Positions 10,845 through 26,433 are shown, counted from the first letter of the stretch. The stretch is 33,548 nucleotides of DNA from Porticoccaceae bacterium (GCA_041622295.1 JBFJZC010000001.1:1-33548), one strand, 5' to 3'. Program-made: numbers and translations. The notes: generated by a model from the sequence alone, not told the origin.

Positions 10845-11297
10845 TCAGGCAAGTTGCCACTGCACCAGCGTAAACGGCACTTTACCCTCGGGGTGGTGTT
10901 CAAATACGGCTGTAACCGGCGCACCGATGGTAATGTCCTGGCGCGGATCACCCAGCAGGTTGCCGACCATACGAATGTTGCTGGCTTCGGGCAGCTCAAC
11001 GAGTACGACAATATAGGGGCCGTGTTCCTGTAAGGCAGGGTGTACCGGATGCCAGACGCGCTCCCAGCTATAAATCAGACCTGTGCCCGTTACTTCGCTC
11101 CACCCCAGATCAAAAGACCGGCAACTGTGGCATAGCCACTCCGGGCCCCATTGCCACGCGTGGCATGATTTGCATCGCTGCACTAACAGTTTATTGTCCT
11201 TGAGACCCTCCCAATAGGGGGTGTCGAGTCCGTCCCGGCTCGGCATGGGGGCTGGCAGCCCTGGGGGAAGGTAGCTGTTTGAGTCCGCGCTGCTCAT
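10845..11297 (-). CDS. DUF35 family Zn-ribbon/OB-fold protein
   Basis: 150-aa ORF. Rubredoxin-like CKSC...CHSC followed by an OB-fold segment (GTGLIYSWERV...YIVVLVELPE...RMVGNLLG). Its ATG overlaps the stop of the upstream thiolase-like gene (ATGA at 11294-11297), the usual pairing for DUF35 proteins. Confidence 0.85.
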   Translation of the reverse strand: MSSADSNSYLPPGLPAPMPSRDGLDTPYWEGLKDNKLLVQRCKSCHAWQWGPEWLCHSCRSFDLGWSEVTGTGLIYSWERVWHPVHPALQEHGPYIVVLVELPEASNIRMVGNLLGDPRQDITIGAPVTAVFEHHPEGKVPFTLVQWQLA

Positions 11298-12478
11298 GAG
11301 AGAGTCTCCTGGCTGCCAAAAATACAGTTGCTGACCGGTGTCACCATGGGGCCTGAAGTGACCATGGACACCTTGGCTCCGGCAACCTGATTGGAGGACT
11401 CCCCGCGGATTTGGCGCACCGCCTCGATGATCAGCTCAAGGCCATGCATGTAACATTCCGCCAGATTGCCGCCGCTGGTGTTGAGTGGCAATTTGCCGGT
11501 AGGCGCCAACAGATTGTCGTAACGAATGAATTCGTTGGCTTCTTCATGGGTGCAGAAACCATGTTCAATGATTGACATCACCACGCCGCCGGTAAAGTTT
11601 TCGTAGCTTTGCAGCACGTCCACATCCTGCGGGCCGACACCAGCCATGCTGTACAGGCGCGGTGCCAGCGAGGTAAAACTCGACGTCGCGTAAAGTGGTG
11701 CGTTGTGACAGGGCGCCGCATTGCGATATTCAGAACCAGCAGTTGCGCCGAGTAGATAGGCTGGTTTCTGTTTCATGTTCTTCGCTTTATCGGCGGAGAC
11801 CAGCACCATGGCCGCGGCACCGTCGTTTTCCATGCAGCAGTCGTAAAGCTGATAGGGTTCGACGATCCAGCGCGCGTCATCATATTTCTCGGCGCTCAGG
11901 GGGCGACCGTGCATCACCGCCCTGGGATTATTCTGAGCGTGTTGATAGGTCGCCAGCGACACGGCTTTATAGGTGTCACGGGTGACACCTGTCTCATGGA
12001 GGTGCCGGGTGCAACGCATGGCGAACATCTGTGCTGGCGACATCATGCCATAGGGGATGGTGTAGGCCGGGTCTCCCGACACGCCGGACGATTTTGGCCC
12101 CTGGCCAAAGCGGGCAAACTGACCCTGCGCCAGGGCACGAAATACCACCACACAGTCTGCTACCCCCGTCGCGATCGCCGCCGCCGCATTGGCAACCGCA
12201 GCACTGCCCCCACCGCCACCGCCACCCCACTGCATATTGGCGAATTTTAGTTCGTGCATGCCGAGCGCGGCGGACAAACGCGACGGATCGCTGCGATCAT
12301 TGCTGAATGACGAAAACCCATCGATATCGCGGGGGTCAAGGCTGGCGTCGTCACAGGCCGCGAGAATGGCTTTTAGCGCCAGGACAAATTCAGGGTCTTG
12401 TGAACCGCCGCGTTTGTAATAGACGGTTTCACCAACCCCGACCACTGCGACTTTGCCCCTGAGCGTTCTGTTGATCAT
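11294..12478 (-). CDS. Thiolase-superfamily protein, SCP-x / lipid-transfer-protein type; probably not a Cys-dependent thiolase
   Basis: ORF 11294..12547. I place the start at Met24 (ATG 12478), giving MINRTLRGKVAVVGVGET, the normal thiolase N-terminus. C-terminal NTSGGNLAECYMHG motif is present. At the position of the CxxGS nucleophile motif the sequence reads GGGGGGGS (Gly tract 12206-12226). The HDCF-equivalent reads YDCC. Confidence 0.85.
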   Translation of the reverse strand: MINRTLRGKVAVVGVGETVYYKRGGSQDPEFVLALKAILAACDDASLDPRDIDGFSSFSNDRSDPSRLSAALGMHELKFANMQWGGGGGGGSAAVANAAAAIATGVADCVVVFRALAQGQFARFGQGPKSSGVSGDPAYTIPYGMMSPAQMFAMRCTRHLHETGVTRDTYKAVSLATYQHAQNNPRAVMHGRPLSAEKYDDARWIVEPYQLYDCCMENDGAAAMVLVSADKAKNMKQKPAYLLGATAGSEYRNAAPCHNAPLYATSSFTSLAPRLYSMAGVGPQDVDVLQSYENFTGGVVMSIIEHGFCTHEEANEFIRYDNLLAPTGKLPLNTSGGNLAECYMHGLELIIEAVRQIRGESSNQVAGAKVSMVTSGPMVTPVSNCIFGSQETLS

Positions 12479-12646
12479 ATTCAATTGCCAGTCGTGAGTA
12501 ATTTTTTTAATGGGTCTGTTTGTGTCGCTATAACGTCGAGCGGACAACCAGACTGTTTAGCGTGCAGGTCGCCATGTCTCGCGTGAACTGCCAGAGCGTA
12601 CGTTGTACCAACCGAATAATGGAGGCGTGGTGGACTTGCCGCGCGT

Positions 12647-12668
12647 GGCCAGGCTTGTACGCCTGGCC
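12647..12668. promoter_or_regulatory. Perfect 8-bp inverted repeat GGCCAGGC-TTGTAC-GCCTGGCC in the divergent control region; candidate operator
   Basis: Read directly. It lies in the roughly 450-bp non-coding region between the thiolase-like operon (minus) and the LLM oxidoreductase gene (plus). Any function is inferred. Confidence 0.3.
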
Positions 12669-12930
12669 TGGTGGGTCGCCCAGGCCCCCGATAAATTCAC
12701 GATACCGCACATTGCCGATCCGCCCGCATATGATGTCATCGCTCATGTGCTCGGATAGTTATAGTTGGTTCTCGCATCGCCTGTCAAACGAAGCAGTCAA
12801 GGGCTGCTGATTATTCTCTGTTGCGTGGCCTGCTTTTAGGTATATCCTTTAACAAAAACTGAGGGCGTACAGCGTAGCGAAGTACCCGGTTCACAACCCC
12901 GAAACCAGATAAAGGATGGAGAAGGTCGCC

Positions 12931-13965
12931 ATGAAAATAGATGTAATGAGTAATCCCCGAGAGCTCCACGCCATTCAAACACAGGCTCGGGACATAGAGC
13001 AGTCGGGATTCAGCGGCATTACTTTCACTGAGGGTGGTCGCACGGCTTATTTATCCGTTGCCGCAGCAGCGTTGGCCACGGAAAAACTCGAGTTTGCCAC
13101 CGGCATTGCTGTGGCTTTCCCGCGTAGCCCTATGGTCACTGCTGCTTGTGCCTGGGAACTTCAGGAGGCCAGTCGAGGCCGGTTTCGGCTCGGCCTTGGT
13201 ACCCAGGTGCGCGCTCACATTACTCGCCGCTACGGCGTCGAGTTCGATCCGCCGGGGCCGCGCATGCGCGATTATATCGGCGCCCTGAAAGCTATTTTCA
13301 AGGCGTACCAGGGCGAAGCAAAGCTTGACTACCATGGCCCCTATTATCAGTTGACCCTGCTGAACCAGATGTGGTCGCCCGGACCGATCGCTTACCCTGC
13401 GCCCGCCATCGACGCCGCAGCGGTCAACCCGTACATGCTGAAGATGGCTGGCGAATTATGCGACGGAGTGCAGGTGCATCCTTTCCATAGTCAAAAATAC
13501 ATCACGGATATGTTGCTGCCTGCGGTCGCCGAGGGCGCTGCTAAGGCCCAGCGCGATCCAGCCGAGGTTGAACTGCTAGTACCCGTGCTCACCATTGTTG
13601 GCAACAACGAAAAAGAAAAAGCCGCTTCGCGGGAGTTCTGCCGCCAACAGGTGGCTTTTTATGGCTCGACACCAAACTACGCTTTTCAGTTCGACTTACT
13701 GGGTTTTGAGGGCACCACTGCGAAAATACGTGAGCGCCAGAAAGCTGGCGATATGGCGGGTATGTCGGCAGTGATCAGCGATGAAATATTGCAACATTAC
13801 ACGGTCGAAGCCAGTTGGGATGATCTGGCAGACAGGCTGGTGGGTCGATATCGGGGCGTCGCTGAGCGCCTGATTATTTATACGGCGGGAATGGATTACG
13901 CCCGCGATCCGAGTTCCATTGGCCGCTGGGGAGAAGTCGCCAGAGCGGTGATTGCCAGGGGCTAG
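12931..13965 (+). CDS. Luciferase-like monooxygenase (LLM) class flavin/F420-dependent oxidoreductase
   Basis: ORF 12916..13965. Motifs: GFSGITFTEGGRTAYLSVAAAALATEKLEFATGIAVAFPRSPMVTA..., RFRLGLGTQVRAHITRRYG and FYGSTPNY, typical of the LLM family. I prefer ATG 12931 (GGAG at 12918-12921, 9 nt upstream) over 12916, whose SD-like AAGG abuts the ATG. Confidence 0.8.
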   Translation: MKIDVMSNPRELHAIQTQARDIEQSGFSGITFTEGGRTAYLSVAAAALATEKLEFATGIAVAFPRSPMVTAACAWELQEASRGRFRLGLGTQVRAHITRRYGVEFDPPGPRMRDYIGALKAIFKAYQGEAKLDYHGPYYQLTLLNQMWSPGPIAYPAPAIDAAAVNPYMLKMAGELCDGVQVHPFHSQKYITDMLLPAVAEGAAKAQRDPAEVELLVPVLTIVGNNEKEKAASREFCRQQVAFYGSTPNYAFQFDLLGFEGTTAKIRERQKAGDMAGMSAVISDEILQHYTVEASWDDLADRLVGRYRGVAERLIIYTAGMDYARDPSSIGRWGEVARAVIARG

Positions 13966-13966
13966 T

Positions 13967-14674
13967 TCACCGAGGTGGATCAAGATGACTGCCGGTAGAA
14001 TTATTCACCCGATACCAACCGGTGACACTGTAGCGATTATTCTGCGTGGCAAGCACTTCGTGCGGGAAGTCTTCGCTGAGGAAGACTACCAGCGTGCCTG
14101 CTAATGGCGCGACCCGGGCGACGATGTCGCTACCGGTAGCGGCGTAGATTATGAGTTCGCCAGCATCTTCGGGTACCCAGTTCGGGTTGAGATAGGCGAC
14201 CACGGATAGTCTGCGATTAGCCTGACCCTTGAATGCGTCATGGTGTGTTCTGTAAAAGTCGCCCGGGCGGTAACGGGAAAAATGGTTTTCAAAGGAAAAC
14301 AGGCCGAGCAAGAGCGTTCGATTAAGGTAGGTCTGGAGCTGCGCGGTCCAGGCCAACCATTGGCGTTGAGCCGCTGTTTCACCATCAATCCAGAGGATGT
14401 CATTGCGGCGAATTCCCTGATTACGCGTACGATAGTGCTGCCGCCCAACACCGCCTTTAGCAAAAATGCTGTCTGGAACTTGCTGGATTTCCAGCAATAA
14501 AGCGTTAGCCAACGCGGCTGGGAACGCATTGGGCGTTATGCTGTAACCGTGCTGCAGGAGATCATTTGCTATACAGGTGAAGATAGTATCTTCACTGGCG
14601 ACAGCAACCGTCTCGCACGCCCGATTATCGGATAGCAGATGGGCTGATGTGGGGAGAAGTTGCGATACAGTCAT
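13967..14674 (-). CDS. 2-oxoglutarate/Fe(II)-dependent oxygenase (prolyl-4-hydroxylase-like)
   Basis: 235-aa ORF. Facial-triad pattern HxD...H (YRTHHDAF ... FPHEV) and RxS (NNRYSVTGW) in a double-stranded beta-helix context. Confidence 0.8.
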   Translation of the reverse strand: MTVSQLLPTSAHLLSDNRACETVAVASEDTIFTCIANDLLQHGYSITPNAFPAALANALLLEIQQVPDSIFAKGGVGRQHYRTRNQGIRRNDILWIDGETAAQRQWLAWTAQLQTYLNRTLLLGLFSFENHFSRYRPGDFYRTHHDAFKGQANRRLSVVAYLNPNWVPEDAGELIIYAATGSDIVARVAPLAGTLVVFLSEDFPHEVLATQNNRYSVTGWYRVNNSTGSHLDPPR

Positions 14675-14964
14675 TAAAGGTCTTCTCGGGATCGAAGACT
14701 GCGCAGTATTTGCCTCCAGGCTGGTGGAGTAAAGGAATTTGTCTGTGTCGGGTCAATGTAGAATTTAATGCTGACTGGTCAATTAATATCTTGCCATTTT
14801 TGTGGTTTGGTCTTATATAGCAAACGCAGTGGGTGAGGCGTTCTGCCCGCTCACAATGTAGTGGTTGCCGACTGCACTGGTGTCGGTTCTCTGGGTAGCA
14901 CGACTGATATCAGATGGAAAAGTTCTGGGTGCAGACTCGGGACAAGGTACCGGACAAGGGCTTT

Positions 14965-17202
14965 ATGAGAAGTGTTATTCAAGAGCTGACACATATTGTT
15001 CAGGCCGTTTCGCTTGCCGATTCGCCCGACCAGCAGGTGTCGCTGATTGTCGAGTCGATCAGCCGCTCGATGGCTGTGGACGTCTGTAGCCTTTATCTGG
15101 CTAACGAGCAAGGCGATATGGTGCTGACGGCGACCCATGGCCTGGCTGGTACAGCAGTGCGAAAGGTGATTTTGCCTGCTGGTAAGGGCCTCGTTGGCCT
15201 GGCCGCCGCCAGCCGTCGCCCGGTTAATATTGCCGATGCGCCGCAGCATCCCGCCTATTTTTATGTGCCTGAGGCTGCGGAAGACCGTTTTCACGGTTTT
15301 TGTGCAGTGCCGCTAGTTTCTTTGGGAAAAACCATCGGTGTCCTGGTGGTGCAAAGCAGTGAAATACGGCAGTTTTCAAACGATGAAGAAGGTTTTTTTG
15401 TCACGCTGACGGCTCAGTTAGCGTTACTGCTGGTCAATTTTTCGCTATCCCCCTATGGCTCCGAAAATAATGTGCGCGTGCTCGGTGTTAGCGGCGCCCC
15501 CGGTGTGGCAATCGGGCATAGCCGATTCTGTGATCACGGCGAACTCTATCAGGTGCCCAGCGGGGTTTGCGAAAATGTCGAGGCTGCGCTCGCCGAATGG
15601 CGCGCCTTATTGGAGCAGGTACGCTATCAACTGGAGGACGAAAGAAAAGCGCTTGGTAAGGTGTTGAACGAAGAGGCCGGAGGTATTTTTACGGCTTACA
15701 GCATGTTGCTTGAAGATCCGGTATTTAATCTCCGGGTAGAGACCCGTATTCGGGAGGGGAACTGGCTGCCTGGTGCTTTACGCTTGACCATTCAGCACTT
15801 TGCCGAGTGCTTCCTGGCGATGGAGGACCCTTACCTGCAAGCTCGGCATGAGGACATTCGTCATCTTGGTAACAAGCTATATCAGGTGTGGCAGGGCGAT
15901 AAGGGGGCAACGTGTCAATCTGCAGTGGACGTGATACTGGTTGGGTCACAGGTCAGTGTCTCAGATATCGCCGCCGTTGCGGCTGGCCACCTACAGGGCA
16001 TTGTCAGTTTTGGCGGATCGCGTTTATCTCATGCGGCGGTGTTGGCTAACGCACTTGGCATCCCGGCGGTGATGGGCACGGGGGCAATTCCCGGTTTGAT
16101 GGATGGGCAGCCGCTGATTGTCGACGGACAACAGGGCCAGGTCTTTGTCAATCCGAGTGAAATCGTGTTGGGCGAATATCGCAAGCTGATTCGTGAACAT
16201 GATAAATTTATCCGTCAGCTGGATAATCTTCGTGAGCAACCAGCGCTTACCCAGGACGGCCAGCTCATTCATCTGTATACGAATACCGGTCTGTTGGCAG
16301 ATATTTCGCCAGGGCTGCGAGCCGGTGCGCAGGGTATCGGTCTGTACCGTACGGAAATACCGTTTATGGTGCACGACAGTTTTCCCTCTGAAGATGAACA
16401 GGTGGCGGTATATCGGCAGGTACTTGAAGCGTATCGAGGCAAGCCTGTTTATATGCGAACGCTCGATATTGGCGGTGATAAACAGTTGCCGTATTTTGCG
16501 ATACGGGGCGAGGACAATCCTGCGCTCGGCTGGCGGGGCATTCGTTTTTCCCTGGATAACAGCCAGTTGTTTATGACGCAGATCAGGGCTATGTTGCGAG
16601 CAGCGGAAACTGAGAGCAATTTGCATATTCTGTTACCCATGGTGAGTTCGACCCAGGAGATCGATGACTTCCAGGTGTTGCTCACCGAAGCAATGCGCCA
16701 GCTCATTGAGGAGGGTGTAGCAGTGGCCTTACCGCGGCTGGGAATTATGGTCGAAGTGCCTGCGGCCATTTCACAGATTCCGATTTGGGCCAAAAGACTC
16801 GATTTTATTTCTATAGGTTCCAATGACCTGAGTCAGTATCTACTGGCCCTGGATAGAAACAACGCGCGGGTTGCGTCGCGCTACGACCATGTGCATCCGG
16901 CTGTATTACATGAAATTCAGCGTATCGTGATGCATGCTCGGGCCGGGCAAATCCCGGTCAGTTTGTGTGGCGAAATGGCCGCTGACCCTGTTGCAGTTGT
17001 GCTGTTGCTGGGCCTGGGACTGCGGACCCTGAGCCTGAGTGCGGCTAAACTGCCCTATATAAAATGGCTAATAAGAACTATTTCGATACAGCAAGCTGAG
17101 GAGATCGTCAGTCAGGCGCTGCTAATGGATAATGCAAAAGCCATCAGGAGTCTGGTCGAAACTACGCTGAAAGAGCTGGGCTTGACGGAAATTTTTCATT
17201 GA
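14965..17202 (+). CDS. ptsP: Phosphoenolpyruvate-protein phosphotransferase PtsP (EI-Ntr) with N-terminal GAF domain
   Basis: ORF 14914..17202. From Met18 (ATG 14965) it is collinear with E. coli PtsP: GAF region (VCSLYLANEQGDMVLTATHGL...GLVGLAA...PVNIADAPQHPAYFY...FHGFCAVPL), phospho-His region (GGSRLSHAAVLANALGIPAVMG) and PEP-utilising TIM barrel (GIGLYRTE, RTLDIGGDK, NPALGWRGIR, FISIGSNDLSQY, VSLCGEMA). Confidence 0.92.
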   Translation: MRSVIQELTHIVQAVSLADSPDQQVSLIVESISRSMAVDVCSLYLANEQGDMVLTATHGLAGTAVRKVILPAGKGLVGLAAASRRPVNIADAPQHPAYFYVPEAAEDRFHGFCAVPLVSLGKTIGVLVVQSSEIRQFSNDEEGFFVTLTAQLALLLVNFSLSPYGSENNVRVLGVSGAPGVAIGHSRFCDHGELYQVPSGVCENVEAALAEWRALLEQVRYQLEDERKALGKVLNEEAGGIFTAYSMLLEDPVFNLRVETRIREGNWLPGALRLTIQHFAECFLAMEDPYLQARHEDIRHLGNKLYQVWQGDKGATCQSAVDVILVGSQVSVSDIAAVAAGHLQGIVSFGGSRLSHAAVLANALGIPAVMGTGAIPGLMDGQPLIVDGQQGQVFVNPSEIVLGEYRKLIREHDKFIRQLDNLREQPALTQDGQLIHLYTNTGLLADISPGLRAGAQGIGLYRTEIPFMVHDSFPSEDEQVAVYRQVLEAYRGKPVYMRTLDIGGDKQLPYFAIRGEDNPALGWRGIRFSLDNSQLFMTQIRAMLRAAETESNLHILLPMVSSTQEIDDFQVLLTEAMRQLIEEGVAVALPRLGIMVEVPAAISQIPIWAKRLDFISIGSNDLSQYLLALDRNNARVASRYDHVHPAVLHEIQRIVMHARAGQIPVSLCGEMAADPVAVVLLLGLGLRTLSLSAAKLPYIKWLIRTISIQQAEEIVSQALLMDNAKAIRSLVETTLKELGLTEIFH

Positions 17203-17241
17203 TGACTTTGGGAAGGGGTGATTTATCTGGGGGAGTAAAAT

Positions 17242-17742
17242 TTGAACAGTGACAGCTTGCTGTCCATCGCGCCTTATGACTGGCCGTCTATTGCCACGGC
17301 AATTTTTTGTGGCGCCATCATCGGTCTGGAGCGTCAACTCAGAGGCAAGCCGGTGGGTATTCGGACCTCATCAATAATCACCATGGGGACGTACATATTT
17401 TTACATTCGGCTATGTTGCTTAATAACGATGTTAGCGATCCTTCCCGCGTGATTGGTCAGGTGGTTACCGGTATTGGATTTTTAGGCGCGGGGGTAATGC
17501 TGGCGCGTGATGGCACGGTGGTGGGGGTTACATCCGCCGCGTCAATTTGGGTGCTGGCAGCTATTGGCGTTACGATTTCTCTCGGTCACCTGATGGCCGC
17601 GATAAAACTGTCATTGGTCACGGTGGCGATCCTCTATGGCGTTGAGTTTCTGGAACAACACACCAAGACATTTAGTCGTGGTGTGCATTCGCGATACAGC
17701 AATCGCCGAAAAACGGACAAGTCTGGAGGAAGTAAGCTGTGA
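17242..17742 (+). CDS. MgtC/SapB family membrane protein; short form without the C-terminal soluble domain
   Basis: 166-aa ORF with a TTG start. GGGAG at 17231-17235 lies 6 nt upstream. Family signature AIFCGAIIGLERQLRGKPVGIRTSSII plus GIGFLGAGVML...SAASIWVLAAIG. It begins 39 nt after the ptsP stop. Confidence 0.85.
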   Translation: MNSDSLLSIAPYDWPSIATAIFCGAIIGLERQLRGKPVGIRTSSIITMGTYIFLHSAMLLNNDVSDPSRVIGQVVTGIGFLGAGVMLARDGTVVGVTSAASIWVLAAIGVTISLGHLMAAIKLSLVTVAILYGVEFLEQHTKTFSRGVHSRYSNRRKTDKSGGSKL

Positions 17743-19205
17743 CCAATGTACTGGTGATCGTCGACAATGTAGAAGATATTGAGGCATATGATGCCAACGG
17801 TGTTGTGATTACTTTTGCTCAGTATCTGCAGGAACATCCCAAGAAAGGCGAAAAGAAAATCCGTCTTATTAATCTTTGTGATACCACGCATTACCTGAGC
17901 CGTGGTTATTATTGCTCTCTGCTGGCGGAGGCCCGTGGTCATCGGGTATTACCGTCGGTTAACACGATCAACGATCTGCGCAACGAACAGCTTTACATGG
18001 CGCAGATTTCGGAAGGGCTGTTCCCTGATAAAGGGAAAGAGCAGGACCCTGAGCCGGGTACCAAAGAAACGATTTATGTGTATTTCGGACACGCGTCCGA
18101 TCCGCGCTATGAAAAACTCGCACAACGTTTATTTACGCTATTTCCCGCGCCCAGTTTGAAAGTGGTGATGACCTGGAAATCCCGCTGGAAAATCAATAGC
18201 ATCCAACGCGTTGCTTTTGCCGGTTTGCCACACAAGCAACGACCGGCGTTCATGGAGGCATTGAATCGCTTTACTGAGCAGCACTGGAAAAGGAGCACCA
18301 GCAGGAAACGCTATCGCTGGGATATGGCTATTTTGGTTGAACCTGATGAAGCGATGCCGCCGAGCAATAAACTTGCATTGAGCAAGCTGGTCAAAGCCGC
18401 AGAAAAAATTAATATCAATGCCGACCTTATCACCGCCGCCGATTACACCCGGCTTAACGAATACGATGCCTTGTTTATCCGTACGACAACCGCCATTGAT
18501 CACTACACCTACCGGTTCTCTCGCAAAGCGGATATTGAGGGTATGGTAGTTGTCGACGATCCCACATCTATTTTGCGCTGTTGCAATAAAGTATTTTTAC
18601 AGGATGCGTTTACCTACAACAAAGTGCCATCTTTAGCGACGCAGGCGGTATTTGGTTTTGATGGCAAAACTGTCAGGGATATAGAACAACAATTTGACTA
18701 CCCCATGGTGTTGAAGGTGCCCGAGAGTTCTTTCTCGCGCGGTGTTTTCAAGGTGGCTGGACGCGACGAGCTGGTTAATCGGCTGGAGCAGTTGCTGGCT
18801 GAAACGGCCATCGTACTGGTGCAGGAATACCTTTATACAGATTACGACTGGCGTATTGGTGTGTTCAACAATAGACCGTTATTTGCCTGCCGGTATTTTA
18901 TGGCGAGAAACCATTGGCAGATTTATAATCACAGCAGCGAGCGCCATAGCAGTGGTGACTTCGAAACAATGCCCACATTTGAAGTGCCAAAACCAGTGCT
19001 CGACGCTGCGCTTAAAGCGTCGAAAGTGATTGGTGATGGCTTATATGGTGTTGACATCAAGCAGCTGGGAAAGCAGGCCTACGTAGTGGAAGTCAACGAC
19101 AACCCGAGTCTTGACCACAAAGTTGAAGACGTCTATTTGGGTGATGAGTTATATATGCTGGTGATGAACGAAATGGTCAGGCGCCTGGAGTTGCGAGGTC
19201 GATAA
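17739..19205 (+). CDS. RimK-like ATP-grasp ligase with N-terminal RLAN-type domain
   Basis: 488-aa ORF. The GTG start overlaps the upstream stop (GTGA at 17739-17742), with GGAGGA 8 nt upstream. The N-terminal ~190 aa (RLINLCDTTHYLSRGYYCSLLAEARGHRVLPSVNTINDL) match my memory of the RimK-like ATP-grasp N-terminal (RLAN) domain. The C-terminal half carries ATP-grasp motifs: YPMVLKVPESSFSRGVFKV, IVLVQEYL, DWRIGVFNNRPLFACRY, GLYGVDIKQLGKQAYVVEVNDNPS. Confidence 0.85.
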   Translation: MTNVLVIVDNVEDIEAYDANGVVITFAQYLQEHPKKGEKKIRLINLCDTTHYLSRGYYCSLLAEARGHRVLPSVNTINDLRNEQLYMAQISEGLFPDKGKEQDPEPGTKETIYVYFGHASDPRYEKLAQRLFTLFPAPSLKVVMTWKSRWKINSIQRVAFAGLPHKQRPAFMEALNRFTEQHWKRSTSRKRYRWDMAILVEPDEAMPPSNKLALSKLVKAAEKININADLITAADYTRLNEYDALFIRTTTAIDHYTYRFSRKADIEGMVVVDDPTSILRCCNKVFLQDAFTYNKVPSLATQAVFGFDGKTVRDIEQQFDYPMVLKVPESSFSRGVFKVAGRDELVNRLEQLLAETAIVLVQEYLYTDYDWRIGVFNNRPLFACRYFMARNHWQIYNHSSERHSSGDFETMPTFEVPKPVLDAALKASKVIGDGLYGVDIKQLGKQAYVVEVNDNPSLDHKVEDVYLGDELYMLVMNEMVRRLELRGR

Positions 19206-19679
19206 GTGGCTTCACCGGTTATTCGAAACGCTATCGCAGCCGATATTCCGATGCTGCTGGACATTGAAGCGAGCAGTTTCGCCAGCGACCATATTTCAAA
19301 ACGGCAATTCAATTACTTCCTGAAAAAAGCTAAAGCCAGGACACTCGTTGCCCTTGTTGACGGTATTGTTAGTGGCTATGCCATTGTGTTAATGCCTGCG
19401 CGAAAGAGCTACGCGCGACTCTATTCGATGGCGGTGGCAAAAAATATGAGAGGGTTTGGTATAGGTGATAGCTTATTGACGGCCGTCGATCAGGCGGTGG
19501 AAAATATCGGCTATTCTACGGCGGTGCTAGAGGTTCGGGTTTCCAGCGTTGGCGTAAGAAGGCTGTATGAAAAACACGGGTTTGTAGTTTGCCGCGTTCT
19601 GGGTGGATATTACGGCGATGGCGAAGACGGGCTCAAAATGAAAAAACAGATGGGGAGTAGCGATACTAAAAGATCGTGA
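19206..19679 (+). CDS. GNAT family N-acetyltransferase, RimI-like
   Basis: 157-aa ORF. The GTG start directly abuts the ATP-grasp stop (TAA 19203-19205), with GAGG 7 nt upstream. Motifs: acetyl-CoA motif A region MRGFGIGDSLL, then LEVRVSSVGVRRLYEKHGF....GYYGDGEDGLKM. This parallels E. coli RimI LEVRASNAAAIALYESLGF...NYYPT..GREDAIIM. Confidence 0.85.
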   Translation: MASPVIRNAIAADIPMLLDIEASSFASDHISKRQFNYFLKKAKARTLVALVDGIVSGYAIVLMPARKSYARLYSMAVAKNMRGFGIGDSLLTAVDQAVENIGYSTAVLEVRVSSVGVRRLYEKHGFVVCRVLGGYYGDGEDGLKMKKQMGSSDTKRS

Positions 19680-19700
19680 ATTTTGAGGGAATTATTTTTT

Positions 19701-20186
19701 ATGCTGAATAAAAACAGAAAAACTACTTGGTATGGAAAATTGGAAACCGCTACGTCGAGTACGGAGGTTATTTACGATCCGACACTACCGGAAGCACCAA
19801 AAAACCGTGTCTATCTTTACAATGTCGAGCGTGGACAAGTTATTCCATACGTTTGGGAGATAGTGAAGGACTTGCTGAGCGAGGCTGAAGGAGAAGAGCG
19901 GGCCAGGATTAAAAGCCGGGCAGGCAAGCGCTGGAAGGCCGCCCGCAAGACTTTTATGCAGGGCCGTATTATGTTGCCCAGGCAGCCGGTGTCCCCGGTG
20001 GAAACTAAAGTTGCCAAGCCGTCAGATGACGACGAAATTATCGATCTGGGTATTCGCTTTGATGACGATGAGGTTGATGACGTGGTCGATGACGTGGTCG
20101 ATGATGTGGATGAAGTTGATGAAGTTGATGAAGTTGATGAAGTTGATGAAGTTGATGAAGAGGAAAGCTGCGAAGAAGATAGCTGA
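19701..20186 (+). CDS. Orphan 161-aa protein with a basic central segment and a poly-Asp/Glu/Val C-terminal tail
   Basis: ORF track 19683..20186. I prefer ATG 19701, with GAGGGA at 19685-19690. It starts 21 nt after the GNAT stop on the same strand and is followed by a strong hairpin. 32 of the last 54 residues are Asp or Glu, with one Arg. The segment RARIKSRAGKRWKAARKTFMQGRIMLPR has 11 Lys/Arg in 28 residues. I recognise no family. Confidence 0.65.
   Translation: MLNKNRKTTWYGKLETATSSTEVIYDPTLPEAPKNRVYLYNVERGQVIPYVWEIVKDLLSEAEGEERARIKSRAGKRWKAARKTFMQGRIMLPRQPVSPVETKVAKPSDDDEIIDLGIRFDDDEVDDVVDDVVDDVDEVDEVDEVDEVDEVDEEESCEEDS
20076..20162. repeat. In-frame coding minisatellite: GATGACGTGGTC x2, then GATGAAGTT x5 perfect with degenerate flanking copies
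   Basis: Read directly. 12-mers at 20076-20087 and 20088-20099. 9-mers at 20109-20153 (five perfect copies, encoding DEV each), flanked by GATGATGTG (20100-20108) and GATGAAGAG (20154-20162). Confidence 0.95.
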
Positions 20187-20254
20187 GCGTAGCGAGGGGT
20201 CGGCATCAACGGCCTCCAATCTGTGCTGTTACGCTGGACTTTCTTAAGCTATAT

Positions 20255-20290
20255 AACCAGGCCCTGAGCACGATTGTTCAGGGCCTGGTT
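20255..20290. terminator. Perfect 13-bp stem hairpin between convergent operons; likely bidirectional terminator
   Basis: AACCAGGCCCTGA (20255-20267), 10-nt loop, TCAGGGCCTGGTT (20278-20290). It lies between the acidic-tail gene stop (20186) and the speB stop (20347). Flanking T/A runs are short (TT on plus, TATAT on minus). Confidence 0.65.
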
Positions 20291-20346: not shown

Positions 20347-21258
20347 TTATTCTGCGGATGCCGAACGTTGAATAATCCCCATCATTTTGTAAACCAGTAA
20401 AGCGGCGGAAAACTCGTAAGTGTGAAAGCCTTGAATAGGAGAAAACTCCATTAAGTCAAAGCCGATGATTTTACGCTGCTTTGCTACTGACTCGAATAAC
20501 GACAGCGTTTGATACCAGCCCAGGCCACCTGGCACCGGGGTGCCGGTTGACGGGAATATTGAAGGGTCCATGCCATCAATATCCAATGTGAAAAATACCT
20601 TGTCAGGAAAGTCGTCAGGTAAACTTATCTGCATATGATTTTTCGGAACTAATACGTCAGCGTCGAGGTGATGTACTGCGTAGAGTTTTCGCGTGGCGAT
20701 TTCTTCTTTACAGATGGCGCGAATGCCCAGCTGAAATAGCGGTATGTCTTCGTCGACAATACGTTTCATTACCGATGCATGACTGTAAGGGTTGCCCTCA
20801 TAAGCATCGCGTAGATCTGCGTGGGCGTCGATTTGAACAACACCAAAATCACTCATCCCCGCTGCCAGTAAGCCTTTAATAACGCCAAAGGTCACGGTAT
20901 GTTCCCCGCCCAGCGCAACAGGTATCCCGCCATGTTTGACGATAGCCTGTGTCGCCAGGGCGATATTGGCTATGGTCTGATCGGCATCGCCACTGACGTC
21001 AACCGGGGGGTGCGTGAAAATACCTTTTTCACAGGGTGAGCTGGCACCGTCCCAGGTTTCAAGTTGCCAGGAAGCGCCGAGAATGGCGGCGGGCCCAGCA
21101 GCCGTTCCACTGCCATAGGAAACCGATTTTTCATAGGGTACCGGCAGAATATGAAAGAAGGCTTCTTCTGGCTCCGGTTGCTTGAGCTCTGAACCGAGAA
21201 AGATGGGGTAACCAGGTGCGGCGAGTTGATCAAATTCACTCATAACCTTTGCTTCCAT
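20347..21258 (-). CDS. speB: Agmatinase (arginase/ureohydrolase family)
   Basis: 303-aa ORF. Mn-binding motifs of the ureohydrolase family: GGEHTVTFG, QIDAHADLRD, SHASVM, TLDIDGMDPS. Start is either ATG 21258 or ATG 21243 (Met6); neither has a strong SD. Confidence 0.85.
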   Translation of the reverse strand: MEAKVMSEFDQLAAPGYPIFLGSELKQPEPEEAFFHILPVPYEKSVSYGSGTAAGPAAILGASWQLETWDGASSPCEKGIFTHPPVDVSGDADQTIANIALATQAIVKHGGIPVALGGEHTVTFGVIKGLLAAGMSDFGVVQIDAHADLRDAYEGNPYSHASVMKRIVDEDIPLFQLGIRAICKEEIATRKLYAVHHLDADVLVPKNHMQISLPDDFPDKVFFTLDIDGMDPSIFPSTGTPVPGGLGWYQTLSLFESVAKQRKIIGFDLMEFSPIQGFHTYEFSAALLVYKMMGIIQRSASAE

Positions 21259-21345
21259 ACGTTGTTGAGCCTAACGTTCATAAAGCTTGCCTGCATTTGA
21301 AGTAATTTGGCCACTAGACCGTCTATTAGACCGCCTATGCGACTA

Positions 21346-22545
21346 TCAGGAAAGCCGGTTTTTGAAATCGTCGTATGAAAATGTGCGGACAATTCTAAGG
21401 TCGTCGGTGGTTGAATTCCAGATGGCAATTGAGGGTAGGCCAATACCGTTGAAGGTACTCGTTTTAACCATGGTGTAGTGGGCCATGTCGTCGAATATCA
21501 GGCGTTGTCCAATCTGCAACGGATTGTCAAAACTGTAATCGCCCATCACGTCCCCTGCAAGGCAGGTCTGGCCGCCAAGACGATAGGTGTAGGCTTTGGT
21601 GTCAGCTTCTCCGGCGCCAAAAATATTGGCACGGTAGGGCATTTCCAGTGTGTCGGGCATGTGGCATGTGGCAGAAGTGTCGAGAATTGCCAAATCCATG
21701 CTGTTGCGGGTGATGTCGAGGACTTCACTCACCAGTACGCCGGTATTAATGGCCGTTGCTTCGCCAGGTTCCAGGTAAACCTGGACGTCGTATTTCTTCT
21801 GGAAGCATTTTATGCATTCGATCAGGGCGTCAACTTCATAGCCCTCGCCAGTAATGTGGTGGCCACCGCCAAAATTAACCCATTGCAGTTGCGGCAGGAG
21901 TTTATGGAAGTGCCGTTCAATGACGGCGAGAGTTCGTTGCAGGGGTGCGAAACTCTGTTCGCAAAGGGTATGAAAATGCAAGCCGCTAATACCGTTCAGT
22001 TGCGAGCTTTGCAACGGCTGGTTCTCTGAAAGTTTGGGGTCAAACTCGGTCAGGGGGATACCCAGTCTGGAACCGGGTGCACAGGGATCGTAAATCGCAG
22101 CGGCGCCTTCGGAGTGGAGCGGGTTGATCCGCAGGCCAAACTGAAGTTCCGGACGTGCTTGCCTGGCCAGTTTTATAAGTGGCTGGTAACGTTCCCATTG
22201 GCTGAAGGAGTTAAATACCACGTGATGGGAAATCTTGAGGATCTCCCTGAGATCTGCTTCGGTGTATGCCGCCGAGTAAGTGTGAATCTCGCCGCCAAAC
22301 TCTTCGTGGCCTAGTCGCGCTTCGAACAGGCCGCTGGCGCAGGTGCCGGTGAGATATTGACTGATCAGCGGTGCGAGGCTAAACATCGAAAACGCTTTTA
22401 GCGCGAGTAGAACCTTTGCACCTGATTCGGTTTGTACGCGACTGAGGATTTTGAGATTCCGTTCAACTGCAATTTCATCCACCACGAAACAGGGTGAGGG
22501 TACGCGCGCTGCGTTGAAGCTGAGGAAGGTCTGGCTTTTAATCAT
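21346..22545 (-). CDS. nspC: Carboxy(nor)spermidine decarboxylase
   Basis: 399-aa ORF. Alanine-racemase-fold PLP decarboxylase with the NspC-type N-terminus (PSPCFVVDEIAVERNLKIL, LLALKAF) and FGGGHH, EPGEA, GQTCLAGD motifs. Adjacent to the dehydrogenase gene. Confidence 0.9.
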   Translation of the reverse strand: MIKSQTFLSFNAARVPSPCFVVDEIAVERNLKILSRVQTESGAKVLLALKAFSMFSLAPLISQYLTGTCASGLFEARLGHEEFGGEIHTYSAAYTEADLREILKISHHVVFNSFSQWERYQPLIKLARQARPELQFGLRINPLHSEGAAAIYDPCAPGSRLGIPLTEFDPKLSENQPLQSSQLNGISGLHFHTLCEQSFAPLQRTLAVIERHFHKLLPQLQWVNFGGGHHITGEGYEVDALIECIKCFQKKYDVQVYLEPGEATAINTGVLVSEVLDITRNSMDLAILDTSATCHMPDTLEMPYRANIFGAGEADTKAYTYRLGGQTCLAGDVMGDYSFDNPLQIGQRLIFDDMAHYTMVKTSTFNGIGLPSIAIWNSTTDDLRIVRTFSYDDFKNRLS

Positions 22546-22590
22546 GTATTCATGTCAACCCGGAGTTCGGCGTAATAAAGCTGATGTCAC

Positions 22591-23787
22591 TTAAATAAGC
22601 GAATAACCCGGCTCTTCTATCACCGTCCACGGTAAGCCGTATTTGTTCATATCGGCCATAAATGGGTCAGGGTCAAGCTGTTCCATATTCCAGACACCGG
22701 GCTTCATCCAGGTTTTCTCCAGCATCATTTTAGCCCCGATCATTGCAGGTACGCCGGTGGTATAGGAAATTGCCTGCGATTGTACTTCTCTGTAGCAAGC
22801 CTGATGGTCGCAGATATTATAAAGAAAAACGGTTTTTTCCCGCCCATCCTTAACGCCGCGAACCACGCAACCGATACAGGTTCTTCCCTGGGTGCGTGGT
22901 CCAAGTGTTGATGGATCCGGCAGCAGTGCTTTTAGAAACTGGATAGGAACAATTTGTTGGCCCTGATAATCTATGGGATGGATGCCGGTCATGCCCACGT
23001 TACCCAATACTTCCAGATGCTTGAGATAATTGTCGGAAAAACTCATCCAGAACTGCGCCTTTTTTAAGCTTGGAAAATTTTTGCTTAGAGATTCCAGTTC
23101 TTCATGATACAGCCTGTATATATCGAAAGAACCCACGTCTTCAGGGCAGGTAAAGCGCTGTTTGAGCGACATGGCCGGGGTGGTCACGAATTCGCCATTT
23201 TCCCAGTGTCGGCATTCTGCAGTCACTTCGCGGATATTAATTTCCGGATTAAAATTAGTGGCAAAAGCGTAGCCATGGTTGCCGCCGTTGACATCGATAA
23301 TATCCAGGTAGTGGATCTCGTCAAAATAATGTTTGGCGATATACGCGGTGAACACATTTGTGGCACCAGGATCAAAGCCGGAGCCCAGTAGGGCCATTAG
23401 ACCAGCCTTCTTAAACTTTTCCTGGTAGGCCCATTGCCATTTGTATTCAAATTTCGCGGTGTCCTGCGGCTCGTAATTAGCAGTATCCAGATAATGCACG
23501 CCCGCTTCCAGACAGGCATCCATGATAGTCAAATCCTGGTAGGGCAACGCAACGTTGATCACTAAATCAGGCTTTTCTTTATTAAAGAGGGATACCAGTT
23601 CCGGAACATTATCGGCATCAACTTGTGCCGTGCGTATTGGACGCTTCAGCTGGCTGGCGATAGCCTTGCATTTGCTTTCAGTGCGGCTGGCCAGAACAAT
23701 TTCATTGAAGATCTGGGGTAGTTGCGCACATTTGTGGGCGACGACACCACCAACGCCACCAGCACCGATGATTATTACTTTTGACAT
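22591..23787 (-). CDS. Carboxy(nor)spermidine dehydrogenase/synthase (saccharopine-dehydrogenase fold)
   Basis: ORF 22591..23871. I place the start at Met29 (ATG 23787, GGGAG about 8 nt upstream), giving MSKVIIIGAGGVGGVVAHK (Rossmann GxGxxG). Collinear with Vibrio CANSDH as I recall it: GFDPGATNVF, FATNFNPEINIRE, QAISYTTGVPAMIGAKMM, WNMEQLDPDPF. Confidence 0.9.
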   Translation of the reverse strand: MSKVIIIGAGGVGGVVAHKCAQLPQIFNEIVLASRTESKCKAIASQLKRPIRTAQVDADNVPELVSLFNKEKPDLVINVALPYQDLTIMDACLEAGVHYLDTANYEPQDTAKFEYKWQWAYQEKFKKAGLMALLGSGFDPGATNVFTAYIAKHYFDEIHYLDIIDVNGGNHGYAFATNFNPEINIREVTAECRHWENGEFVTTPAMSLKQRFTCPEDVGSFDIYRLYHEELESLSKNFPSLKKAQFWMSFSDNYLKHLEVLGNVGMTGIHPIDYQGQQIVPIQFLKALLPDPSTLGPRTQGRTCIGCVVRGVKDGREKTVFLYNICDHQACYREVQSQAISYTTGVPAMIGAKMMLEKTWMKPGVWNMEQLDPDPFMADMNKYGLPWTVIEEPGYSLI

Positions 23788-23898
23788 AATATACTCCCGG
23801 GTATTGGTTATCAGGGATAAAGGTAACAGCCAGTTGCCAGCTGGTTTCTGGAAGCGGAAATATTGTTCCAAAAGGCTATGGTCAATAGATCCGAGCGC

Positions 23899-25848
23899 TT
23901 AACGTTCAAAATAGGTGTAACCCTGCATGCTTTCCCTGAATGCGGTCAACATGGTCTGGCGCATCGCTACTGATATTTTGCCCTGACGGACAGCTTCCTC
24001 GGCGATGCGGCGAAACTGTTCCAGCATTATTTTCGGGTCGTACTCAACGTAACTTAGAACATCAGCGATGCTGTCGCCATGGAATTCGCGGACAAATTCA
24101 AAACCGCCATCCTCGGTGATACGCACGCTGACCACGTTGGTGTCACCAAATAAATTATGTAAATCCCCCAATGTTTCCTGATACGCGCCCACCAGAAAGA
24201 CACCGACGAGGTAGTCTTCCCCTTCTTTGAGCGAGTGTAGCGGCAAGGTTTTTCGCAGGCCGTCAGGTGAAGAAAAGTTATCAATTTTTCCGTCACAATC
24301 GCAAGTCAGATCAGCAATAATGGCCTCTCGTGTCGGTCGTTCGTCGAGACGGTGTATGGGCATAATGGGAAATATCTGGTCTATCGCCCAAATGTCTGGC
24401 AGTGATTGAAAAAGGCTAAAATTGCCGTAGTAAATATCAGAAAGCAACTCCGGCAAATTCTCCATCTCCGGAGGGATACGCTCAACTTCGCTGAGCAAAC
24501 TAGCAATACGCTCCAGTGCCGCCAGCGTTATGTTTTCGGCCAGCGCGCGGTCGCGCAAAGTTGCCTGGCCGTGGCGAAATAACTCCCTTATTTCGTCTCG
24601 ATAGTACAGCGCGTCGTTATAACACTCCTGAAAGGTCTTCGATGTGATCAGCGTTGGCACCGCAAACAGATTTTCTAACAACTCGTGACAATCGTCTGGG
24701 AGCGTCGTTGGAAGTGGGGTAGGTTGATGGTCGCGGACATCCAGAATGTTGAATATCAGCACGGATGAATAGGCGATAGTGGCGCGGCCGGACTCCGTGA
24801 TGATGACGGGGTGAGCAATATCCAGCGGGTCGAGACTTTCGCGAATTGTTTCGACGATATTAGTGCAGTATTCCTGCAACTTGTAGTTCATGCTGTGCGT
24901 GCTGTTGGTGCGGGCACCCTCGTAATCAACTGCGAGGCCGCCGCCCAGGTCGAGATAGCCCATCGGTGCGCCTTCGCTAATCAGGCCGCTATAAAATCGG
25001 CAAGCTTCGAGTACCCCGCCCCGGATGTTACGGATATTGGGGATTTGCGATCCTAGATGGCAGTGCAGTAGCTGCAGGCAATGTAACATATTGGCCTGTT
25101 TGAGCACGTCGACTACGTCAAGCAGGGCATTGGTAGAAAGACCAAAAATTGAGCGATCCCCGCTGTCTTCGTTCCAGTGCCCGTCAACGATCACAGAGGG
25201 TTTAATACGAACGCCAAGCAAGGGCTCAATGCCGAGCGCGCGGCTACGCTCAAGGATAGTGGGCAATTCTGCTGGCGTTTCAAGGACAAAGAAACAGGGA
25301 ATACCTATTTGCCTGGCGTACAGGCCGAGTTCGACAAATTCGGAGTCTTTAAATCCGTTACAGATAATCAGGCTGTCGTGATCCTGCAACTGTGACAGGG
25401 CGACAATCAATTCCGCCTTGCTGCCTGCCTCAAAACCGTGATGGTAATGGCGACCAAAATCGGCTATTTCTTCAATGACGTGGCATTGTTGATTGACCTT
25501 AATCGGGAAAACGCCGCGGTAGTGATTGTTGTATCCGTCCTGCTCAATAGCACTTGCAAAAGCCTCATTGAGCGTTTTTATGCGGTGGTCCAACAGGTTT
25601 TCAATGCGCAACACCGTGGGCATTTCCAGGCCCCGGGCTTTCATGCCAGCAATAATATCCATCAGTGGCACGGCAACGGTTTTGTCCCCAAAGCTGGCGT
25701 GAACCACCGTCTCACCCTGCTCTGAAATACTAAAGTATCCGCCGCTCCAGTCGTGGATTCCATAGAGCTCGATACTTTGCGCGGACGACCAGTCGTTAGT
25801 TGAGGCTATGTTTTTGGTTGCGATCTGTGTGGTCAAGTGCTCGTCCAT
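23899..25848 (-). CDS. speA: Biosynthetic arginine decarboxylase
   Basis: 649-aa ORF. GAGG lies 8 nt upstream. Collinear with E. coli SpeA: FPIKVNQ, EAGSKAEL, HCHLGSQ, DLGGGLAVDYEG, ITESGRA, NFSLFQSLPD.WAIDQ.FP..P, TCDCDG, VGAYQE.LG..HNLFGDT. Confidence 0.93.
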   Translation of the reverse strand: MDEHLTTQIATKNIASTNDWSSAQSIELYGIHDWSGGYFSISEQGETVVHASFGDKTVAVPLMDIIAGMKARGLEMPTVLRIENLLDHRIKTLNEAFASAIEQDGYNNHYRGVFPIKVNQQCHVIEEIADFGRHYHHGFEAGSKAELIVALSQLQDHDSLIICNGFKDSEFVELGLYARQIGIPCFFVLETPAELPTILERSRALGIEPLLGVRIKPSVIVDGHWNEDSGDRSIFGLSTNALLDVVDVLKQANMLHCLQLLHCHLGSQIPNIRNIRGGVLEACRFYSGLISEGAPMGYLDLGGGLAVDYEGARTNSTHSMNYKLQEYCTNIVETIRESLDPLDIAHPVIITESGRATIAYSSVLIFNILDVRDHQPTPLPTTLPDDCHELLENLFAVPTLITSKTFQECYNDALYYRDEIRELFRHGQATLRDRALAENITLAALERIASLLSEVERIPPEMENLPELLSDIYYGNFSLFQSLPDIWAIDQIFPIMPIHRLDERPTREAIIADLTCDCDGKIDNFSSPDGLRKTLPLHSLKEGEDYLVGVFLVGAYQETLGDLHNLFGDTNVVSVRITEDGGFEFVREFHGDSIADVLSYVEYDPKIMLEQFRRIAEEAVRQGKISVAMRQTMLTAFRESMQGYTYFER

Positions 25849-26258: not shown

Positions 26259-26345
26259 TGGTACCAGAGGCCGGACTCGAACCGGCACGCTTTTAAGGGC
26301 GCGGGATTTTGAATCCCGTGTGTCTACCAATTTCACCACTCTGGC
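26259..26345 (-). tRNA. tRNA-Leu, anticodon CAA (class II, long variable arm), CCA encoded
   Basis: Folded by hand from the reverse complement: GCCAGAG-TG-GTG-AAATTGGTAGA-CAC-A-CGGGA-TTCAAAA-TCCCG-CGCCCTTAAAAGCGT-GCCGG-TTCGAGT-CCGGC-CTCTGGT-A-CCA (87 nt). All stems pair. Position 1-72 is a G-U wobble rather than G-C. Confidence 0.9.
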
Positions 26346-26356
26346 GCAGGCCGAGG

Positions 26357-26384
26357 ATTATAACAGTGGCTGATGAGTGGTCAA
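26357..26384 (-). promoter_or_regulatory. Sigma70 promoter of tRNA-Leu
   Basis: On the minus strand: TTGACC (rc of 26379-26384), a 16-nt spacer, then consensus TATAAT (rc of 26357-26362). A GC-rich discriminator CCTCGGCC follows, and the mature tRNA 5-prime end is 11 nt downstream of the -10 element. Confidence 0.6.
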
Positions 26385-26433
26385 TGTGCTGGCCTAATTT
26401 GTTTGTTGCTATCGCCAGTCTGGATCTATTTAT

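Follow-up and report, generated by a model that had tools for sequence, protein, structure and literature searches.

What do a RimK-like ligase and an acetyltransferase make when they are encoded side by side with a membrane protein, and which of the surrounding genes belong with them? This question is raised by a stretch of DNA of 33,548 nucleotides (nt) from a Porticoccaceae bacterium (GCA_041622295.1 JBFJZC010000001.1:1-33548; the whole stretch is hereafter called the window), in which four closely packed genes at 17242-20290 encode an MgtC-like membrane protein, an ATP-grasp ligase with an N-terminal RLAN domain, a RimI-like GNAT and a small protein with an acidic tail. The ligase and the GNAT constitute the translationally coupled core of a system that is very widespread, mostly in marine Gammaproteobacteria, known from computation and experimentally uncharacterised. 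A short MgtC subfamily, ptsP and a 2-oxoglutarate (2OG)-Fe(II) oxygenase are recurrent partners of this core, and the acidic-tail gene, a member of a stand-alone family, adjoins the module in this lineage alone. As to the product, the best explanation, held tentatively and at a little short of an even chance, is that 17242-19679 is a three-gene module of this ligase-GNAT system and that its product is an N-acetylated peptide-type amide. The combination of an RLAN 'RimK family' protein with a GNAT is already recognised by Pfam and NCBI; the window locus is an ordinary member of this system with one lineage-specific gene added, and it represents a minority variant, having a short GNAT together with MgtC, ptsP and the 2OG oxygenase.

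All four open reading frames (ORFs) claimed in the original prediction were recovered by ORF calling, and their Pfam matches came out as it had anticipated, with MgtC, RLAN plus RimK-type ATP-grasp and GNAT for the first three proteins and none for the fourth:

17242-17742, plus strand: short MgtC/SapB-family membrane protein with the membrane domain only, 166 amino acids, TTG start (PF02308, 1.4e-30, residues 18-139 of 166)
17739-19205, plus strand: RLAN + RimK-type ATP-grasp carboxylate-amine ligase, 488 amino acids, GTG start (PF14401 + PF08443)
17817-18257, plus strand: RLAN domain of the ligase, residues 27-173 (PF14401, 3.4e-44)
Residues ~195-488 of the ligase, plus strand: ATP-grasp part (PF08443, 5e-08)
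19206-19679, plus strand: short-form RimI-like GNAT without the DUF3335 peptidase domain, 157 amino acids, GTG start (PF00583, 4.6e-13)
19701-20186, plus strand: small acidic-tail protein (the fourth gene) made up of conserved N-domain, basic linker and acidic (DEV)n tail, 161 amino acids, ATG start (alignment A4)

The genes are as tightly packed as had been described. The MgtC stop TGA (17740-17742) shares bases with the ligase GTG at 17739 in a GTGA overlap, the ligase TAA (19203-19205) directly abuts the GNAT GTG at 19206 (19203-19208), and a 21-nt spacer lies between the GNAT stop at 19679 and the ATG of the fourth gene at 19701. Each gene has its own purine-rich motif resembling a Shine-Dalgarno sequence 5-10 nt before its start (GGGGGAG, GGAGGA, GCGAGG and GAGGGA), in agreement with the original prediction. 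The mechanical ORF start of the fourth gene is a TTG at 19683; all of its homologues begin at the ATG-encoded MLNKN (19701).

The simplest answer to the question of function would be that the pair is the ordinary ribosomal machinery, namely RimK for glutamylation of S6 and RimI for acetylation of S18, with the membrane protein adjacent by chance. Indeed, the best named hidden Markov model (HMM) matches are the rimK family and rimI. Membership in the general families is clear: the RLAN domain scores 150.6 bits with PF14401 (gathering score 25), the RimK-like ATP-grasp part 33.2 bits with PF08443 (cut-off 21), and the GNAT, which carries the RGFGIG acetyl-CoA motif, 49.9 bits with PF00583 (cut-off 20.7). 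The curated cut-offs for the specific enzymes, however, contradict this answer; the ligase reaches 26.5 bits with the RimK equivalog NF007764 (cut-off 331) and 66.4 bits with rimK_fam TIGR00768 (cut-off 143.4), and the GNAT reaches 71.8 bits with the rimI equivalog TIGR01575 (cut-off 86.4), though this is its best model. The ligase further possesses an extra 190-amino acid RLAN domain, shares ~18-20% identity with solved RimK structures, and is linked to MgtC in at least seven gene orders, as described below. Therefore, a plain RimK/RimI pair is hardly credible at this locus. Other specific models fit no better: LysX TIGR02144 gives 62.5 bits (cut-off 275.6) and the MptN model 47.2 bits (cut-off 350) on the ligase, and Ngg TIGR03103, scored with the GNAT protein, gives 14.6 bits (cut-off 569). 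By these profile scores the ligase is orthologous to none of the characterised enzymes in NCBIfam, and both proteins fall outside the characterised groups, below the curated cut-offs of RimK, RimI, LysX and NAGGN synthetase. The reported absence of the known partners also holds, in that Pfam scans of the larger ORFs of the window turned up neither rpsF nor an asnO-type gene.

The likeness of the ligase to RimK nevertheless extends to its catalytic part. In comparison with RimK of E. coli and Pseudomonas (PDB 4iwx, 5zct, 7qyr), it has the same ATP-grasp fold, with a template modelling (TM) score of ~0.8 on the RimK chain, and shares the conserved Lys, QEY and D-E-N motifs, and the acyl-phosphate chemistry is probably the same; it differs in its ~19% identity, in the RLAN domain, and in having GNAT and MgtC as partners instead of RimB and RimA. 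The ATP-grasp motifs had been described as complete, and the Lys, QEY and D..E.N of the ligase do align with those of RimK and LysX; K326, Q362/E363, D439, E451 and N453 are invariant or nearly so among 68 homologues. An AlphaFold2 model of the ligase has a predicted local distance difference test (pLDDT) score of 86, and the best Foldseek matches for its catalytic half are RimK, ArgX, LysX and Ddl. The ~190-residue N-terminal extension, which had been assigned to RLAN, does match this domain. A sequence search of PDB with the RLAN profile returned nothing at E <= 10. Modelled alone (pLDDT 82), RLAN shows a weak likeness in Foldseek to PsnB, MdnB/C and ArgX (E ~4e-5, TM 0.5-0.58, root-mean-square deviation 7-10 A). 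An origin by internal duplication was considered and set aside, as an hhalign comparison of RLAN with the ligase's own ATP-grasp half was not significant (probability 3.9%); because of this result, the likeness of RLAN to ATP-grasp enzymes is merely suggestive. From its model, RLAN may be a degenerate ATP-grasp-like module or a substrate-binding module. Within the RLAN part of the ligase gene (17739-18314), an invariant block is encoded, N45-x-C47 ... G56-YYCSLLAEAR-66-x-H68 ... P72.

Ligases of this type are numerous. At least 7975 homologous proteins were found, all listed matches having RLAN plus ATP-grasp and bearing the usual name 'RimK family protein', and the matches are distributed over at least 584 reference species concentrated in marine Gammaproteobacteria. 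Carriers include Porticoccus, Haliea, Pseudoalteromonas, Alteromonas, Colwellia, Neptunomonas, Microbulbifer and Teredinibacter, and identity to the homologues in Porticoccus, Haliea, Pseudoalteromonas, Alteromonas, Colwellia and others is 48-71%. Among the carriers are cultured organisms in which the system could be knocked out, such as Pseudoalteromonas haloplanktis ATCC 14393 (L060), Neptunomonas qingdaonensis (L036) and Microbulbifer variabilis (L068).

Which genes accompany the ligase was surveyed in 80 species-level reference loci by ORF calling, BLAST and HMM searches and de novo clustering; 61 of the 80 have at least 3 kb on both sides of the ligase and are regarded as fully flanked, and neighbours were counted within 3.5 kb. 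A GNAT is present in 51 of the 61 fully flanked loci, and in 40 it lies directly downstream of the ligase on the same strand, with gaps clustering at -11 to +5 nt; an overlap of 1-11 nt between the two genes is usual. DUF3335, a C39-like and papain-like domain, is found in 45/61 and is usually fused to the GNAT to give a protein of ~370 amino acids. Frequent fusion of DUF3335 to GNAT domains has been remarked on previously (PMC10318531). A short GNAT like that of the window occurs in seven loci (7/61, or 7/51 of those bearing a GNAT), and ten of the 61 have neither GNAT nor C39-like domain. The window GNAT shares 33% identity with the GNAT half of a GNAT-DUF3335 fusion (L033). Compared with the recognised RLAN 'RimK family' + GNAT/DUF3335 pairs (PF14401/PF08443 + PF00583/PF11814), the window locus has the same ligase architecture and the same coupled downstream GNAT, and differs in that its GNAT is short and lacks DUF3335 and in that MgtC, ptsP and the 2OG oxygenase are present. 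Several further families recur near the ligase. A metallopeptidase-like DUF2817 protein (M14/MpaA/AspA-like, with a weak match to AstE/AspA- or MpaA-like M14 enzymes) is encoded in 7/80 loci, in several of them between ligase and GNAT; C9, a cluster of ~370-amino acid proteins with a sub-threshold M42 match only and no NCBIfam match, is a recurrent upstream neighbour in 8/80; and DUF155 and a LysR regulator are found in 9/80 and 10/80, respectively. None of DUF2817, C9, DUF155, the LysR regulator and the C39-like domain is encoded anywhere in the window.

The membrane protein is the second element that is not peculiar to the window. It belongs clearly to the MgtC family (PF02308, 106.6 bits, gathering score 31.4) and falls below the cut-offs of the full-length MgtC equivalogs NF011912 (81.7 vs 255 bits) and NF007431 (91.1 vs 214 bits), whose matches span only residues 17-132; the protein ends ~27 residues past the membrane domain. 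It shares with Salmonella MgtC and B. subtilis SapB the PF02308 domain and the ERQxRGKPxGxRT and GIGFLGAG motifs, and differs from them in its length of ~166 amino acids, in lacking the C-terminal soluble domain and in not standing beside mgtB-type transporters. Its subfamily consists of proteins of ~165 amino acids with 57-78% identity across the aligned loci (alignment A3), and adjoins the ligase or the GNAT in 12/80 ligase loci; in a reciprocal metagenome survey, the ligase was found within 5 kb in ~20 of 75 MgtC loci. MgtC joins the ligase-GNAT pair in at least seven distinct gene orders in several genera:

PtsP-MgtC-Lig-GNAT: the window, L086 and L003 (the L003 contig ends inside the ligase gene)
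MgtC-Lig-GNAT: L081
Lig-GNAT-PtsP-MgtC: L018, L108/110 and L126/135
Lig-GNAT/C39-MgtC: Pseudoalteromonas
Lig-MgtC with the GNAT on the opposite strand: Neptunomonas
Lig-DUF2817-GNAT/C39-MgtC: Oleiphilaceae
Lig-GNAT-MgtC: L029

Since the linkage of MgtC has been kept through rearrangement across several genera, a functional link with the ligase and the GNAT is supported. The neighbourhood survey thus bore out the suggested linkage beyond the window for MgtC, ligase and GNAT, and did not do so for the acidic-tail gene, which is treated below.

Two further genes upstream have to be added to the list of partners:

13967-14674, minus strand: 2OG-Fe(II) oxygenase resembling prolyl 4-hydroxylase (P4H), divergent from ptsP (PF13640, 2.2e-21)
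14914-17202, plus strand: ptsP, encoding enzyme I of the nitrogen phosphotransferase system (EI-Ntr) with GAF and PEP-utilising domains (Pfam GAF, PEP-utilisers_N, PEP-utilizers, PEP-utilizers_C)

The gap between ptsP and mgtC in the window is 39 nt, and a terminator scan between the two genes detected none; the transcription unit possibly begins with ptsP. Thus, of the limits originally given to the unit, the four ORFs stand, and its start may lie further upstream. A ptsP gene is found directly upstream of the short MgtC subfamily in ~16 metagenome loci; the two are neighbours in L018, L090, L108, L116, L120, L123, L126, L135 and L140, for example, and ptsP lies inside an operon of the order Lig-GNAT-PtsP-MgtC-2OG in L018, L126 and L135. 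The usual upstream partner of ptsP is rppH, which is not present with it in the window. The subfamily of the 2OG oxygenase was found in 12 loci; in most of them its gene lies immediately beside that of the ligase, MgtC or PtsP, and translational coupling to these is frequent. In L017, L020 and L025, all from Haliea, the oxygenase gene overlaps the ligase stop by 4 nt, and in a fourth (L010) it directly follows the ligase; none of these four loci has a GNAT. It is the last gene of the tight operon Lig-GNAT-PtsP-MgtC-2OG in L018, L135 and L126 (the L126 contig ends inside the gene), and in L029 it overlaps MgtC as the last gene of Lig-GNAT-MgtC-2OG and encodes a protein with 52% identity to that of the window. 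The 2OG oxygenase is a probable accessory gene of an extended module. All five of 2OG, PtsP, MgtC, ligase and GNAT are present in the window and recur elsewhere in shuffled order; the functional unit in the window probably spans 13967-19679.

What the module makes is suggested by analogy. In the proposed reaction, the GNAT would cap an amino group using acetyl-CoA, and the ATP-grasp ligase would form an acyl-phosphate on a carboxylate and add one or more amino acids; analogy with the RimK family suggests glutamate as the likeliest of these. An N-acetylated dipeptide or oligopeptide-type amide would result, in the manner of NAT8L + RIMKLA for N-acetylaspartylglutamate (NAAG) or of Ngg for N-acetylglutaminylglutamine amide (NAGGN). 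In other genomes, the papain-like DUF3335 (GNAT-fused) and the M14-like DUF2817 hydrolases might turn this product over, and the role of the MgtC-like protein would be to link the system with the membrane, by way of localisation, export or regulation. The NAAG pathway consists of NAT8L and RIMKLA/B with aspartoacylase, and the NAGGN trio of Ngg, a GNAT + ATP-grasp fusion, AsnO and an M42 peptidase. Both resemble the present system in combining an acetyl-CoA-dependent GNAT with a RimK-type ligase, and related loci additionally encode DUF2817, an M14 hydrolase of AstE/AspA- or MpaA-like type, together with a weakly M42-like protein. In contrast to Ngg, the GNAT and the ligase of the window are separate proteins, RLAN and MgtC have no counterpart in that pathway, and neither an asnO nor an M42 gene was found in the window. 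The likeness is one of logic, not of orthology.

EI-Ntr (PtsP) is a glutamine/2-oxoglutarate sensor, and the linkage to ptsP and the 2OG oxygenase could, speculatively, hint at a coupling to glutamine/2-oxoglutarate (nitrogen/glutamate) status. In its widest form, the proposal would join RLAN ligase, GNAT, short MgtC, PtsP and 2OG oxygenase into one membrane-associated, ATP- and acetyl-CoA-dependent system that makes an N-acetyl-(hydroxy)peptide or tails a protein and is tied to the glutamine/2-oxoglutarate signal of the nitrogen phosphotransferase system, the acidic-tail protein possibly having been recruited in the window lineage. As a whole this is improbable; if true, it would give the first biochemical role to the MgtC family and to the RLAN domain. 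The five-family association is in any case a lead for the function of RLAN ligases and of MgtC-like membrane domains.

Several points weigh against an N-acetylated amide as the product of the three-gene module. First, we know of no substrate or product for any RLAN ligase, and to our knowledge the biochemistry of the MgtC family is unknown; a literature search for RLAN, PF14401, DUF3335, DUF2817 and RimK-like + MgtC found no functional study. Second, the associations have exceptions: ~16% of the fully flanked ligase loci have no GNAT nearby, ~70% of the MgtC-subfamily loci have no ligase within 5 kb, and the 80 loci taken for each survey are the best-scoring ones and partly redundant. Third, co-transcription of the module genes is inferred from gene spacing alone. 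Finally, the closest profile and fold matches, namely RimK, LysX/ArgX, RimI, the P4H-like oxygenase and the papain-like and M14 peptidases, are for the most part enzymes that modify proteins or peptides, so that a protein target is nearly as likely as a small molecule.

This last point leads to the alternative that the system modifies a protein or a ribosomally made peptide encoded elsewhere. The ligase would then extend a C-terminus or a side-chain carboxylate, the GNAT would acetylate the N-terminus, the oxygenase would hydroxylate one of the residues, and RLAN would recognise the target; in other genomes, the modification would be trimmed by the papain-like and M14 peptidases. The catalytic half of the ligase best matches RimK and the carrier-protein ligases ArgX and LysX, the best HMM of the GNAT is RimI (71.8-76.8 bits), several loci have PF13640 oxygenase genes in tight coupling, fusions of the GNAT with a C39-like peptidase occur, and the RLAN model resembles the peptide-binding ATP-grasp ligases PsnB, MdnC and ArgX, all of which would fit such a target. 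However, no candidate substrate gene is conserved in the neighbourhood, the matches to characterised protein-modifying families all lie below their curated cut-offs, and the RimK family includes small-molecule ligases, MptN and CofF matching at similar levels. A target encoded elsewhere is a serious alternative and only somewhat less likely than an N-acetylated amide.

A target encoded at the locus itself was the leading idea of the original prediction, in which the fourth protein would be the dedicated substrate of ligase and GNAT in a self-contained protein-tailing cassette. Judged from its substitution pattern, the fourth gene is a real gene under purifying selection: the ratio of nonsynonymous to synonymous substitution rates (dN/dS) is about 0.15, with values of 0.12-0.21 in five of six pairwise comparisons with three relatives, a range similar to that of the adjacent GNAT (0.13-0.30); the remaining pair, formed by the window and the 99%-identical L082, has 0.05 on the basis of only six differences. 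This selection would suit a dedicated substrate, as would the position of the gene, which is always 21 nt after the GNAT on the same strand (all four sequences of the window lineage), and the acidic tail, which is like those of S6 and LysW. A precedent would be LysX/ArgX-LysW, in which a RimK-type ATP-grasp enzyme likewise stands beside a small acidic-tail protein, ArgX and LysX being also among the best folds for the ligase. LysW is a zinc-ribbon protein whose C-terminal Glu is invariant. The family of the fourth protein differs from this system in having neither a conserved C-terminal residue nor a conserved linkage to the ligase, and the comparison fails on these points.

The comparative data go further against a dedicated substrate. 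The nearest sister locus (L081, ligase 71% identical) has no fourth gene, MgtC-Lig-GNAT being followed there directly by a convergent speB. Of the 80 ligase loci, none gave a match to an HMM of the fourth family, whose sole match in the MgtC loci is L086, from the window's own species. Acidic-tail ORFs of any family are likewise missing, with none among 6492 ORFs (>=30 amino acids) within 4 kb of the ligase in 81 loci. The protein is not the orphan that it had been called: a word-indexed search found only four close homologues, and an exhaustive HMMER search with the N-terminal 111 residues placed it in a small uncharacterised family with 93 cluster representatives, of which 34 have E <= 1e-10. 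The members, all annotated as 'hypothetical protein', have ~125-145 amino acids and consist of an N-domain with the pattern WYGxLxT...V..DP.LP.AP.G.VYLYN..R..IV.Y, a basic linker and an acidic tail; the family has no Pfam, PHROG or PADLOC match. Their C-terminal residue is variable (D, E, G, V, L, M, A or S), unlike that of S6 or LysW, and the tail ends in ...EEDS or ...EEDG in the window lineage. The family members stand in unrelated, mostly monocistronic contexts. Six members outside the window lineage on contigs long enough to judge have no RLAN ligase, GNAT or MgtC nearby, being located upstream of gltX, beside a CHASE histidine kinase gene, between an alcohol dehydrogenase gene and galM/galK, near ThiC, near pdxS/pdxT and in one more context; a seventh, on a 1-kb contig, has no module gene either. 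It is therefore very unlikely that the acidic-tail protein is the dedicated substrate, and the idea of a self-contained tailing system is not supported, the fourth gene lacking linkage in other ligase loci. Since the gene always follows the GNAT by 21 nt in the window lineage, it may have been recruited locally. For experimental work, the comparative data narrow the targets to be tested, the core being the ligase and the GNAT and not the acidic-tail protein.

Some minor features of the fourth gene and its family may be added. The family is usually monocistronic, with intergenic gaps of ~200 nt (L166-L168, L169, L171, L172, L174, L176), and one member, P0125, lies ~190 nt upstream of gltX, the glutamyl-tRNA synthetase gene, in three places (L166-L168; 5001-5399 / 462-860). 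Many members end in a motif like (F/V)ELED(M/I)xF(D/E). In the window, the acidic tail (20072-20185) is encoded by in-frame tandem repeats of 12 nt, 9 nt and 15 nt, of which the second is the following:

20100-20160, plus strand: 9-nt tandem repeat GATGAAGTT, 6.8 copies, encoding DEV (Tandem Repeats Finder)

The DEV repeat is expanded in the window, with a 16-codon length difference from L082, L083 and L085. On the opposite strand, 19817-20209 reads as a Ser/Thr-rich shadow ORF of 130 amino acids, which the repeat produces as an artefact.

Downstream of the fourth gene lies a hairpin:

20253-20290, no strand assigned: G+C-rich hairpin lying between the fourth gene and the convergent speB; candidate bidirectional terminator lacking a U-tract

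The perfect 13-bp hairpin noticed earlier (20255-20290) is present, with the arms AACCAGGCCCTGA / TCAGGGCCTGGTT, and it extends to 17 pairs. The 124-nt hairpin region folds with z = -5.5 relative to shuffled sequences, and the hairpin is kept in L082, with a G-to-A substitution that replaces a G-U pair by an A-U pair. After the hairpin, neither strand has a run of five T in eight, and the terminator scan gave no call. Since it sits between convergent genes, the hairpin may act in both directions. The convergent speB ends at 20347 and belongs to a polyamine cluster (20347-25848, minus strand) of agmatinase speB, a carboxynorspermidine decarboxylase-like gene (nspC), a saccharopine-dehydrogenase-like carboxynorspermidine synthase and arginine decarboxylase speA; the short contig L084 also carries speB. 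A link of the module to polyamines was considered and rejected, as the convergent speB/nspC/CANSDH genes are found only in the window lineage and L081, and in 0/80 reference ligase loci.

No Rfam family was found in or near the module. The composition of the locus has no marked anomaly and thus gives no sign of recent transfer. An origin in defence or phage was also rejected, none of the four proteins having a PADLOC match and the acidic family having no meaningful PHROG match. Upstream of the 2OG oxygenase, 9487-13965 encodes an Amidohydro_2 protein, a ChsH2-like OB/zinc-ribbon protein, a thiolase-like protein and a luciferase-like monooxygenase. This cluster shows synteny with L081 and has the appearance of a set for steroid or aromatic side-chain degradation. 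The rest is an ordinary housekeeping context, comprising an RND efflux system (OEP, HlyD-like, AcrB-like) at 2021-8156 on the plus strand and, at 26259-31716, tRNA-Leu(CAA) on the minus strand followed by queA, tgt, secD and secF.

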